A stretch of 64,000 nucleotides of DNA, taken from Chrysomallon squamiferum. Its lineage: Eukaryota > Animalia > Mollusca. The position numbers were made by a program, and so were the translations under genes. This document shows, one piece after another, positions 24,042 to 29,046 of this stretch. The notes under the pieces were generated by a model. The model ran no database searches. It saw only the letters and a program-made list of their open reading frames with translations, and was not told where the DNA came from. Numbering within the stretch: position 1 is the first letter of the stretch; every line of letters starts with the position of its first letter. Location of the stretch: contig CM022674.1 of the NCBI GenBank assembly GCA_012295275.1, positions 15,810,001-15,874,000 of the forward strand, in the 5' to 3' direction.

Positions 24042-25379
24042 GAGGAATCAAAGACAAAAACAAAGACACGCGTGTTGACAAATTTCAAAGCTGTCTTAGT
24101 TTATTAGTCAAAACTAGCTGTATCCTAGCCTGTAATTAACGTAACTACGAAATTTAAAAATAATAATAATAATAATAAAACAAATAAAAAATGCCTTTAA
24201 AGGTTCGACATGGCATTTTTTTCCAGTAAAAGGGCATTAATGATGGTCAAACAGAACTTTAATTATCTGCATATATCGACATTTTAATACAGTTTATTTA
24301 CAGATTACAATCATTAATACATATTTATTTACTACCTGTCGTTGTTTTATCTTTTGTTTATCTCATAAAACTACATAATCTTTGGCTTTCTCTCGGTCTC
24401 TTTGCTTTTTCTGTAGACACTTTTGTTCTCTAAATATACTTTCCCGAAGACAAATAGTAATGTCGACTAACAATGGACAGCCTTTCTCTCAGATACATGA
24501 AAAGGAGAACTTAGGCTAAATAAAAGTCATTATAAGAGACTGATGTTCATGCACTGATTGTGTTCTATCACTTTCTAAACGTCAAGAATTGTATTACATT
24601 CACACGAAATATCTATTCTCAGCACGACACTAAAAAATACTCTCTCTGTGTTTGTCTTTATAACAAAGCAAATCTCATATTGATTATACTAGTAAAGCGA
24701 ATACTGTCCTCCATTGTCAGTAAAACTAGAACCACAGTTGGTAGAAAAAACCTTAATGACGTACTTTCTTCTGAATTTATTATTGATATATCTTAATAAC
24801 CTGTTTTTAAATGTTTATAATCTCAAATAATCTTCATTGTTTAATGTGTCAAATCCTCACAGTCAAGCAGTCTGTTTTCTTATGTTTATTCAATTGAGAT
24901 GACAACTTGTCTTGTCCTTCACCTGTCAGACTTCAAATAAAGTCAAGAGAATGAGTTATGCCGAGGCATTGACAGAATAAAAAAAGTGTCAAGAGGTTTG
25001 AAGCGGATGCAGTCAAAGAAAACGCTGAGGTGCAGACTTGAAAGATATTACAAATATACATGACTAATTAGTATTAAACAATATAAAAATACATCATGAA
25101 TATGGTTTACTATTTCCAGCACTACTATTAGTTTCTGTTCCACTATTATTAGCCTACTATATCCAGTACTACTATTATTACTGACCATACCATTTCCAGT
25201 ACTACTACTATTACCAACACTACTATTTCCAGTGCTACTACTATTATTATTATTATTAGCCATACTATTTCCAGTACTACTATTATTGCGTTTATCTAAC
25301 TTATCTTGATGTTCCCCTTAATTTACCTTAATTACCTGATGACCGACATCACCTGGAACGAGAAAGGAAAGGTAAATTA

Positions 25380-25460
25380 TCCGAGCGGAGCAAGGATTTG
25401 AACTCCAAGCAGCGAGCGTAGCTAGCGTGAACGCTAACCACGACACCATCCGATCTCGGA
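25380..25460 (-). ncRNA. tRNA-like / Pol III type-2 promoter segment, left arm
   Basis: Closing stem TCCGAG...CTCGGA, A-box-like TGGTGTCGTGGTTAGC, B box GTTCAAATCC. No clean anticodon arm. Confidence 0.6.
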
Positions 25461-25872
25461 CGACCACCAACGAAAAGAACTTCTAGTCAATCGTGCGATC
25501 GATGTTGTGCAATCGATTTGGAGTTACCTCCCAATATGGCGATTATCTGTAGAAGCCGCCATTTTCGAAATTTGCATAATATCCTGCAATACTATAAGAA
25601 TTATATAACTTGCGGGGATAATGACATCATGTTTATTTTTAGAAACTATGTAATGCAATTCTTTTAATTTTATATAAATGTTTATTTTATTAAATATTTT
25701 ATTTTATATGCTAAATATTAACGAATGTGTGGATTTATATTTAAAATAGTCAGATAAAATAAAATGAAAATGACGGCTTCTGCAGATAATCGCCATGTTG
25801 GGAGATAACCCAAAACCGACTGCGCAACATCGATCGCAGGATTGACTAGAAGTTATTTTCGTATGTTGTTCG

Positions 25873-25952
25873 TCCGAGATCGAATGATGTCGTGGCTAGA
25901 ATTCACTCTCGCTACGCTCGCTGCTTGGAGTTCGAATCCTCGCACGCTCGGA
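25873..25952 (+). ncRNA. tRNA-like / Pol III type-2 promoter segment, right arm
   Basis: Closing stem TCCGAG...CTCGGA, A-box-like TGATGTCGTGGCTAG, canonical B box GTTCGAATCC at 25930-25939. Confidence 0.6.
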
Positions 25953-26649
25953 TAATTTACATTTGATTTCTCTTTCCAGGTGATGTCGGTGATGTCGGTA
26001 ATTAAGGTAAGTTAGGTAAACGTCAACAGTAGTAGAGTTAGAAATAATACTAGTACTGGAAATAGTAGGGCTAGTAATAATTGTAGTATCGGTACTGGAA
26101 CAAGTATTGGAAGTAATAACAGTAGAACTGGAAATAGTAGGCCTAGTAATAATAGTAGTAGTACTGGAAATGGTACCGCTAGTAATAATAGTAGTAGTAC
26201 TGGAAATGGTACCGCTAGTAATAATAGTAGTACTACTGGAAATAGCAGGGCTAGTAATAATAGTAGTATTGGTGTTGGAACAAATATTGGAAGTAATAAC
26301 AGTAGAACTAGTAACAATAGTAATGGAAATAATAGGGCTAGTAATAATAGTAATAAAAATAGTAGGACTAGTAAAAACAGTAGTAATACTAGAAATGGTA
26401 GAGGTAATAGTATTGGAAATAGTAGGGATAGTAATAATAGTTGTGAAAATATTAGCGCTGGTAATAATGGTGGTGCTGAAAAGCTCTCTGCTATTAGACA
26501 CGTGAACTAAGTAATAATACATTTTGTTTTATTTTATTTTAAATTTTATTAAAGCAAAAGCAGCAAATACAAAACAGTCGTGGGAAATTGGGAAATCACA
26601 TGACAATGTTTATAATAATACAAAACCAGATACATTTTGTGTTAGAATC

Positions 26650-27815
26650 ATTCGTTTTTTATCTCTGGACACGAAACTAACAGTTTTATGGATAACCATA
26701 GGTTGTTTACCTTTACTTACAACTTCCACCTTACACCTTATAACAAAGATTTGTTGGTGTCCATAGTGGGTTGATAAATGTTACATTCATCAACAAGAAT
26801 AATATTTTTATTTTCGGATCTACTTTACAATTCACAATTTCAAATGAATTCTCACTCATGATAAAAGTGAATCCACCAAGTGGTTGATTTTCTCCAGGTA
26901 TTGTACAAATTTCATTTGCTTCTTGTTTCTAATTTCTAACTCAAGTAACTAATTGTTCTCTGGTTGTTGCCACACTAGCAACTAATACTCTCCTAGCTAT
27001 TTCTGTCATTTTCATTCCTTTAGAACTTACTTTTAATTTGTTAGCTTCCTCTCGTTCGGCAGCTTACACGACTTTTCTCTTCTCTTCTCTGATGATAGCG
27101 TTGATCACTTTTTCTGCATATCGAGGTGTCGATTTTCGTTCAAAGGATTTTCCTTGGTGAGTCTACAATAATTTCATCCTCTGACAAAGGTTCTGGTGTT
27201 TTTTGTCGGTGTTGCTGTTGAATCGCTTCATGCTCTACTTTCAACGTGATGTACTGGGCAAGAATATCCGATGCAGTTGTATCAGGTTTTCGTCAATCAG
27301 ACTGAAAGTTCTTCCTCCATTTACTCCATTCGTCTTTTTCTTCTGAATCTTTTGATCGTTCGTCTGGTTGTAGTATATTTCCTAGAGTTTGTTCTAGCGT
27401 CATCACTGGTACTTTAGACAAAGCTACACGATATTCAACCGGAAGAGCTAAATCGTAAGATCCCATAAAGATGTACTGATCGTTTCGTTGTAGATAACGA
27501 AGGAGACCAGGAATCGAACAAACTTTGGCAGAGGTAACGCTCAGACCAACTTTCTCAGCAAACTTCTTCATACTACGATACTGCTGGTCGTTTCCGACAG
27601 ATGCTTCGTTGCCGGTCTTATTGCATACGATGTGCATCTGACGATTGTTTGATGAATTTACCAGCAGGGTTTTCCTCGGTCCATTTTCAAATACAGCAGG
27701 TGCATTGTTTGGAGGTGCAGATACCAAAAACAGCTTCAGTCGACTGATGAAATCTTTAGTAGCCAAAACTGGGATTTTACTCACATCTTGAGGTAAGCCG
27801 TTCCATTTAATGCAT
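26650..27815 (-). mobile_element. Decayed parvovirus-NS1-like Rep gene (HUH endonuclease plus SF3 helicase remnant), endogenous viral or rolling-circle element
   Basis: N-terminal ORF has AVFENG...RQMHIVC (HUH-like, CAG one base from His) and IPGLLRYLQRN (motif-III-like Tyr). After stops and frameshifts: ENKNIILVDEC (Walker B, 26786-26803), DTNKSLL*G...VK (motif B') and LLVSC (motif C-like). Walker A was not found. No introns. Confidence 0.65.
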
Positions 27816-27817
27816 GG

Positions 27818-29046
27818 ATGAGAGATAGATATGCTAATAGCAGAGCGGCAGACAAAGCGAGTAACAGAAGGACGACAGAGAGAGATCCTAATAGCAGAGC
27901 GGTAGTCAGAGATAGTAACAGAAGAACGACAGAGAGAGATGCTAATAGTAGGGCGACAAAGATAGTAACAGAAGGACGACAGAGAGAGATGCTAATAGTA
28001 TGGCGACAGACAAATATAGTAACAGAAGGACGAGAGAGAGAGATACTAACAGTAGGGTGACAGACAAAGATAGGAACAGAAGGACGAGAAAGAGAGATGC
28101 TAATAGCAGTGCGGCAGATAGAGATAGTAACAGAAGGACGACAGAGAGATAGTTTCTGAAGGTCGTCATATCGATATCCTGACAGTGAAGTGTTGTTCAG
28201 AACGGCATTACAGAAATATACTAATAGAAGGGCGTCAGCGCGAGATATCAATAGAAGAGAGTTAGAAATAGTAACAGGTGGACGTCAGAGAAAGATAATA
28301 ACAGTAGGCTGTTAGACAAAGACAGTAACACAAGGACATCAGACAAATGTACTAAAAGAAGGGCGTCAGAAGGATTTGCCAGCAATAAGCCGTCAGATAG
28401 ACAGTCATTCACAGTGGAGGGTAAAATCACACTTTCAGATATTAAGGTGGAAAAATCACACGGAACACGTTCAGACAGCCATTATACAAGAACGGAAAAA
28501 AACAAGTGTATTTGGAAAACAATTCGAAACAGCAATAATCCCTCAAATAATTCCAAAGCATACAGAGAAAGATATTTTACAAAAGCCAATACGGAGAAAG
28601 ATCATCTCAAAAGAAAATCCGAGAGCGATTATCCAAGGGCAGATAAAGACATATAATCCTAAGAGACGAGTATTTTCAGAATACAAATAAAGAGAAAAAT
28701 GATCCCAGAGAAATTAAAATGAGGGATTATCCTACAGCAAAATTTCACAGCGATTACCAAGGAGAAAAGATAGTCAAGAATTATCCCATAGGAACTAAAG
28801 CCAAGGATTATATTAGACCAATAACGTACACCTATTATCGAGGAGGAGAGAAATTGAATGATCATCCGAAAATTACATCAGAACTTGATCAGAGTAACCA
28901 ACACAGACAGGCATAATATCCAGGGAAGCTCAGACAGTATCTCCAGACTCGATTCGCCTGATACAGACGACACTGTGACGGGACAAAGAAAAGAAGCATT
29001 TAACAGTGACAGAAGAAGTAGTCACCAAATGAGCAGAGAAAAATAA
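27818..29046 (+). pseudogene. Decayed ORF built on 30/60-bp tandem repeats (10-aa R/D/S/N/K-rich units)
   Basis: Overlapping ORFs 27818, 28414, 28719 and 28858 can be joined across frameshifts. Units DANSRAADR-DSNRRTTER are followed by degenerate DYP-type units. Confidence 0.45.

Follow-up and report, generated by a model that had tools for sequence, protein, structure and literature searches.

What kind of element occupies positions 25106-29046 of this 64,000-nucleotide stretch of Chrysomallon squamiferum DNA (the window, hereafter), where minisatellites, two tRNA-like heads in inverted order and a decayed gene resembling the replication protein (Rep, or NS1) of parvoviruses lie side by side? 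The first-pass annotation had proposed an undescribed parvo-like element; we lean, to a modest degree, towards reading the block as a broken copy of a multi-copy repeat, one of a degenerate parvovirus-like family with long inverted arms and many derivatives that lack Rep. Its origin likely lies in a virus-derived, parvovirus-like, capsid-less mobile element that has since been outnumbered by offspring without genes.

We built a helicase profile from 39 parvoviral NS1 references (L002-L004 and L010-L046; 40 parvovirus-type loci were fetched by motif, all but L038 yielding an NS1). Across the six frames of the window, its top match is on the minus strand at 26815-26705 (14.9 bits, E 5e-4), and the next-best score elsewhere in the window is 3.8 bits. 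Scored across frames, the match extends over 26815-26682 and reaches 29.5 bits in profile columns 83-127, from Walker B to motif C of a superfamily 3 (SF3) helicase; the maxima were 22.3 bits in 200 region shuffles and 23.6 bits in 200 column-shuffled profiles, the reversed profile gave 20.6 bits, and the rest of the window gave 19.0 bits. The match also ranks first with all three leave-one-group-out profiles (E 0.004, 0.002, and 0.054). The piece is interrupted twice, by a stop (26738-26740) and, near 26733, by a frameshift. Walker A (columns 45-51) was not aligned in the block by this profile, nor does the sequence directly before Walker B resemble the references (median z between -0.4 and 1.1). 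Three brevidensovirus-type NS1 proteins used alone gave no tblastn match, the helicase piece found no relatives in PDB sequences or in a set of 5.8 billion proteins, and the five loci returned by a DNA pattern scan for Walker B (L005-L009) were all unrelated.

Eight sequencing runs of the same organism, from three studies, contain the stretch, six of them with at least half of its words; five of the eight were used for contig alignment, and none is recorded as RNA. The contigs that align to the Rep part (26500-27830) number 95, 68, 83, and 94 in four runs, and 31, 32, 35, and 32 of them, respectively, are less than 95% alike to the window. Because 31 to 35 contigs per run differ to this extent, diverged sister copies exist and the NS1-like open reading frame (ORF) is multi-copy, which bears out, in all four runs, the multi-copy status given in the first-pass annotation; diverged copies of the other parts of the block occur in the sequencing runs too. 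The Rep copies form diverged groups, whose neighbouring sequences at 26637 and 27818 are not the same, and neither the stop at 27293-27295 nor the frameshift near 26733 is common to most of the aligned depth. We counted 86 differences among the copies; of the 40 shown, 22 are in the N-terminal frame of the Rep-like gene. Sister-copy contigs part from the window at 26809 (runs X3 and X6) and at 26812 (X3 and X7), with 84-105 unaligned letters; judging by these departures, a segment is probably missing from this copy near 26810, the expected place of Walker A. As a separate observation, contigs of three runs have about 30 extra letters at 27650-27654, just upstream of the candidate HUH-like strand described below; they mark a diverged copy group.

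Upstream of the helicase piece there are open frames of 232 and 50 codons, both in the same frame, and in NS1 the HUH domain likewise sits upstream of the SF3 part (PMC13426907). Here we find a hydrophobic strand with one His, a candidate HUH-like strand at 27640-27623 on the minus strand, with a Tyr-bearing helix about 47 residues further on, near 27499; single-sequence models of the region (pLDDT 45 and 39) show a strand-helix-strand-helix order, which is compatible with HUH. From this layout, the N-terminal frame was rather probably an HUH nickase. An argument from the spacing between HUH and Walker B (280 codons here; the reference median is 294, with 31 of 39 references measurable) was dropped, since this copy probably has a deletion.

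The left half of the block consists of two inverted arms. The identity between their heads (25306-25566 and 25766-26030) is 85.6% across 263 columns, with the inversion reaching into both minisatellites (25108-25566 versus 26211-25766, with 374 of 437 columns identical, a divergence of about 14% between arms 1 and 2). Because the inversion continues into the minisatellites, each arm is a head plus a minisatellite, and the two are arranged around an AT-rich spacer of 199 bp. An A box and a B box at tRNA spacing, the promoter layout of RNA polymerase III (Pol III), occur at exactly two places in the 64 kb, 25885 on the plus strand and 25448 on the minus strand, compared with 0.165 expected from 200 shuffles for a pattern that was drawn up after the heads were seen. 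The inverted pair of tRNA-like heads and the two minisatellites (tracts at 25111-25287 and 26043-26468) are therefore present as first described. Neither ARAGORN nor Rfam finds a tRNA gene in the heads, and an Rfam match to MIR7533 (E 2.7) was set aside as it reflects only the inverted repeat. Since the boxes stand at tRNA spacing, yet ARAGORN and Rfam give nothing meaningful, the heads resemble tRNA genes in the layout of their promoter without being such genes.

Both heads are richer in GC than the window, with CpG observed/expected ratios of 1.34 and 1.56 (0.78 in the window). The arm 1 stretch 25375-25465 folds better than 200 of 200 shuffles (z -4.36), and arm 2 has z -1.33, not better than all shuffles; covariation between the arms comes to one double change in 27 pairs, which from two sequences is too little to use. 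In both arms the tRNA-like part comes after about 106 conserved bases that contain YY1-like motifs, unlike a plain SINE (short interspersed nuclear element). Downstream of the tRNA-like part, arm 2 has an acceptor, a 27-nt piece bearing an ATG (25980-26006) and a donor; a scripted scan for splice signals recovered the acceptor and donor in arm 2 and a donor only in arm 1. A DNA pattern scan for the head motif gave no matches in viral sequences, and one metagenome match (L001) is a chance one, having only 21-22 bases in common with the head, inside a long ORF that by eye resembles a phage tape measure.

The right-hand region is repetitive as well. The divergent ORF of 10-aa repeats that had been described there is not sustained: the repeats recur every 27 bp (9 aa), with a dimer of 54 bp, and are spread over three frames. 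The 27-bp periodicity is 0.61 at 27816-28160 and 0.445 at 28530-28900 (99th percentile of shuffles, 0.38). This array and minisatellite 1 have 16 8-mers in common (maximum of 11 in 300 shuffles), and with minisatellite 2 there are 24, a marginal excess over the shuffle maximum of 23. No Pfam family reaches the cut-off in the right-hand frame, and its only Atlas matches score below 0.9, with low recognition. Contigs divergent from the window join the end of minisatellite 2 to the 3′ side of Rep (X6 record 19 and X7 record 30), suggesting a link between minisatellite and Rep in other copies. At 27818, one contig each in X3, X7, and X4 exits into 19-42 letters that by eye are like an arm minisatellite and unlike the 27-bp array; such an exit would mean that Rep, read in its sense direction, is preceded by an arm, closing a tandem or circular unit.

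Two sets of results, one from the coding remnant and one from the depth of the parts, weigh against a degenerate parvovirus-like family. The helicase match spans only about 45 residues, and Pfam gives no SF3 family in any of three frames. We sought an HUH match by Pfam, reference profiles, and pairwise tests and found none in the block (the HUH-region profiles gave it at most 3.4 bits, with an unrelated place, p0_43801, ranking first at E 0.004); a fold search with the two single-sequence models returned no HUH protein (best Z 6.0 and 4.2), an absence that excludes nothing given the low confidence of the models. Of the HUH/SF3 relic first annotated on the minus strand, the SF3 piece thus holds by its profile match, and the HUH domain has no support from sequence, profile or fold; the first-pass condition for refutation, a reconstructed protein matching neither profile, applies by half. 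The N-terminal piece has no match in viral, metagenome or GTDB contigs, in Atlas or in PDB sequences, nor, at longer lengths, in the 5.8-billion set; none was found among 1.84 billion representative proteins either, and the lineage is therefore poorly sampled. Among the copies, with the row of the stop left out, third positions take 11 of 21 differences in the N-terminal frame (p 0.056), and the synonymous ones number 7 where 4.8 are expected (p 0.18), neither being a clear sign of coding constraint. One could suppose that the frames on the minus strand do not belong to a Rep gene and that the helicase likeness arose by chance in decayed repeat DNA, as the empty large-database searches and the negative Pfam result would allow; but the profile match lies above all 400 nulls and continues in register in the second frame, with the 232- and 50-codon frames open upstream, and we regard chance as very improbable.

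As for capsid genes, none of the 103 non-NS1 ORFs of the 39 reference loci matches the window at E 0.01, which concerns this copy only, and the block has no HDxxY motif of phospholipase A2 (PLA2); VP is very divergent among parvoviruses (PMC13426907). The block works like a parvovirus-like transposon, and its membership in the Parvoviridae is not established, because no capsid gene was recovered from this copy and HUH stands as a candidate only. It shares with the NS1 of the 39 Parvoviridae references the part of the SF3 helicase between Walker B and motif C, located at the C-terminal end of a long frame; it differs in that matches to Walker A, the HUH profile, capsid and PLA2 were not found, and in that the inverted repeats of this copy are internal and head-to-head around a spacer.

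Depth makes up the second set. Summed contig depth (runs X1, X3, X6, and X7) is not copy number, and only its ranking is used; reads from the arms may align to either one, blurring the separate depths of arms 1 and 2. In all four runs the Rep part has the least depth and minisatellite 2 the most. As multiples of the Rep depth, the values are 5.0-29.5 for the arms (7.5-29.5 for arm 1 and 5.0-17.3 for arm 2), 4.4-6.0 for the spacer and 1.8-7.0 for the right-hand region, and those of minisatellite 2 are 42-107. Because the spacer has 4.4-6.0 times the Rep depth in four of four runs, the head-to-head pair probably recurs as a repeated unit and did not just come together by chance at this one locus. 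The excess of arms and minisatellite 2 over Rep also fits an independent abundant repeat. On that explanation, head and minisatellite form a tRNA-derived SINE-like or satellite-like repeat, one lineage of which captured an NS1 fragment, the composite then being duplicated a few times. The tRNA-derived SINEs of molluscs and other animals indeed have A and B boxes, high abundance and a tandem-repeat tail (PMC4824008; PMC4758252), just as the boxes here stand at tRNA spacing with a tandem-repeat tail following, and the arm divergence is above that of freshly copied terminal repeats. Such a SINE begins at its tRNA-like head, whereas here the 106 or so conserved bases come first; mollusc SINEs with extra sequence before the tRNA head and with terminal tandem repeats do exist (PMC4758252). 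However, the pair is inverted around a spacer that is itself repeated, no target-site duplication was found around arm 1, the minisatellite seems to lie on both sides of the Rep part in other copies, and three short head motifs have no match in four supplement files of that paper (PMC4758252; file 1 is outside the search). We consider an independent SINE-like repeat unlikely, if far from negligible; were it the true origin, the block would be an ordinary viral fossil among repeats.

The surroundings bear on the degenerate parvovirus-like family in a similar way. The window is AT-rich (GC 0.30) and dense in microsatellites and large duplications (4526-11476 versus 52068-60693; 19889-25105 versus 60903-63994). 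Within the latter pair, paralog B at 62982-63994 matches 24071-25105 at 93% and diverges from copy A at 25105/25106, so that the left edge proposed at 25106 is confirmed, with the 6 bases available there as the sole evidence. The contig depth of the left flank (24060-25079) is 4.0-6.2 times that of the Rep part in four of four runs, about equal to that of the spacer, and the pair may have been amplified together with the flank, a further point against the family reading. Thus the block is not simple foreign DNA set in a single-copy host. An ordinary parvoviral fossil might have been joined once to unrelated repeats and then passively multiplied in a host segmental or tandem duplication, to which both the make-up of the window and the flank depth would conform; against this, the block is missing from paralog B at the matching point (6 bases only), the depth of its parts differs widely, and the diverged groups of Rep copies do not have the same sequences beside them at 26637 and 27818, and we judge it improbable. 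Element termini, a target-site duplication and resumed flank were not found around the block within the window; a search for a left-flank duplication of at least 6 bases gave nothing but one match inside the head. The left flank (24071-25105 and 62982-63994) may itself be an unrecognised repeat, about 1 kb long, or may belong to a duplication with many copies. A further 2 kb or so of copy A (22012-24070) is missing from paralog B, where 62977 joins 62982, and holds a 12-bp array of about 53 copies with strong GC skew (23426-24041).

If the block does descend from a parvovirus-like mobile element, the element would be copied by its own nickase-helicase, with the N-terminal frame acting as the HUH nickase. 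The terminal repeats of ambisense densoviruses act as origin or promoter, and each arm (head plus minisatellite) may be a long inverted repeat with such a role. The unit would pass from a minisatellite through a head, the spacer, the other head, the other minisatellite and Rep to minisatellite again, and might be copied by a rolling-circle or rolling-hairpin route and then integrated; derivatives that lost Rep and kept the arms could be mobilised in trans and so become the majority. The A and B boxes might recruit Pol III or TFIIIC and may yield a small structured RNA like the BocaSR of human bocavirus 1, and the arm piece at 25980-26006 could serve as an ATG-bearing leader exon. A bolder reading sees in the block a family, not described before, of animal rolling-circle transposons that derive from parvoviruses and lack a capsid, with long inverted arms that each bear a Pol III tRNA-like cassette, an ATG leader exon and a minisatellite, and with many non-autonomous derivatives; it is a tentative proposal that we hold to be doubtful in its full form. 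If true, it would provide an SF3 counterpart to the pair formed by Helitrons and their non-autonomous HINE relatives, with a BocaSR-like RNA built into the origin.

Among comparable elements, the planarian PEVE is reportedly laid out as two unique regions between inverted repeats. Multi-copy parvovirus-like repeats are on record from acorn worm, Hydra, and planarians (Liu et al., PMC3198968): the acorn-worm element, DENSOV_HM of Hydra, and PIVE and PEVE of planarians resemble the block in having an NS1-like or SF3 helicase ORF and many copies. The acorn-worm element has more than 50 copies, and such invertebrate repeats are often degraded or down to one ORF, with inverted or palindromic ends. 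It also has a VP1 ORF, whereas none was found in the present copy, and the portion of that account used here mentions no tRNA-like cassette or tandem array in these repeats, which are set apart from the block by their descriptions, not by sequence (PMC3198968). Parvovirus-related sequences occur in 118 animal species, six molluscs among them (Francois et al., PMC5013282), and there are parvovirus-like sequences that may have circular genomes (Buck et al., PMC11071296). A Pol III RNA with A and B boxes is known from one parvovirus, the BocaSR of human bocavirus 1 (PMC11194592); similar to the heads, BocaSR has an internal A-box/B-box promoter in a non-coding part of the genome and a tRNA-like structure. 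It differs in being a single 140-nt RNA whose transcription and requirement for replication have been demonstrated (PMC11194592), whereas here there are two inverted copies of a putative promoter, with no Rfam match.

The helicase of Helitrons is a Pif1-type enzyme of superfamily 1 (SF1). No such helicase was found here (no Pfam match in the scanned frames), and the remnant matches SF3. The non-autonomous Cg_HINE Helentrons are similar in that minisatellite arrays are spread by a gene-less rolling-circle element (PMC7492417); they differ in that here the helicase remnant is SF3-like and tRNA-like boxes are present. No description of an NS1-type Rep with tRNA-like inverted arms and minisatellites was found in the open literature, a search that did not cover Repbase or subscription journals. 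The first-pass claim of novelty was accordingly overstated, as multi-copy parvovirus-like repeats (PMC3198968) and a parvoviral Pol III RNA (PMC11194592) are both known; their combination is without a description in the literature searched. If arms and Rep are one unit, the block would be the trace of a single-stranded DNA virus turned transposon, with autonomous and non-autonomous members; minisatellites would be spread as by Helentrons but with SF3 machinery, and the Pol III RNAs of parvovirus-type replicons would extend beyond bocavirus. The features of the block are listed in Table 1.

Table 1. Features of the block, by position in the window.
Feature	Positions	Strand	Remarks
Minisatellite 1	25106..25300	-	18/33-bp units; tail of arm 1; left edge is the point of departure of paralog B
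Arm 1 head	25306..25566	-	about 106 conserved bases, then tRNA-like stretch 25460-25380 (A box 25448, B box), then splice-like signals
Spacer	25567..25765	none	AT-rich, 199 bp, between the arms
Arm 2 head	25766..26030	+	tRNA-like stretch 25873-25952 (A box 25885, B box), then acceptor, exon-like piece, donor
Minisatellite 2	26030..26510	+	36/33/30-bp units; open in several frames; deepest-covered part
AT-rich stretch	26510..26620	none	polyadenylation-like hexamers on both strands (26528, 26545, 26548); putative function
SF3 helicase remnant	26682..26815	-	Walker B to motif C, profile columns 83-127; two frames
Probable internal-deletion junction	26809..26812	none	contigs of other copies depart from the window on both sides
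N-terminal frame of Rep-like gene	27143..27829	-	stop at 27293-27295; no in-frame ATG before the candidate HUH-like strand
27/54-bp tandem array	27816..28400	+	8-mers in common with the arm minisatellites, same polarity
Degenerate 27-bp (9-aa) periodic region	28400..29046	+	broken frames; ends near AATAAA at 29042

Elsewhere in the window, an AT-rich satellite of 40-bp units (29948-32303, about 2.3 kb) starts 0.9 kb to the right of the block, and an inverted 2-kb duplicate (16419-18437 versus 32901-34938, 93% identity) contains a 185-codon open frame at 17498-18055, for which a six-frame Pfam scan was empty. The exon-like open frame at 19562-20176, with a paralog from 60903, resembles by eye an immunoglobulin-type domain of a duplicated host gene (no Pfam match at E 0.01). 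There is an assembly gap of roughly 200 N at about 45450-45650. Two minus-strand frames (36607-37026 and 45432-45887) have a signal-peptide-like stretch after Met and no Pfam match; the first of them also has dibasic sites and may be the exon of a secreted peptide precursor.

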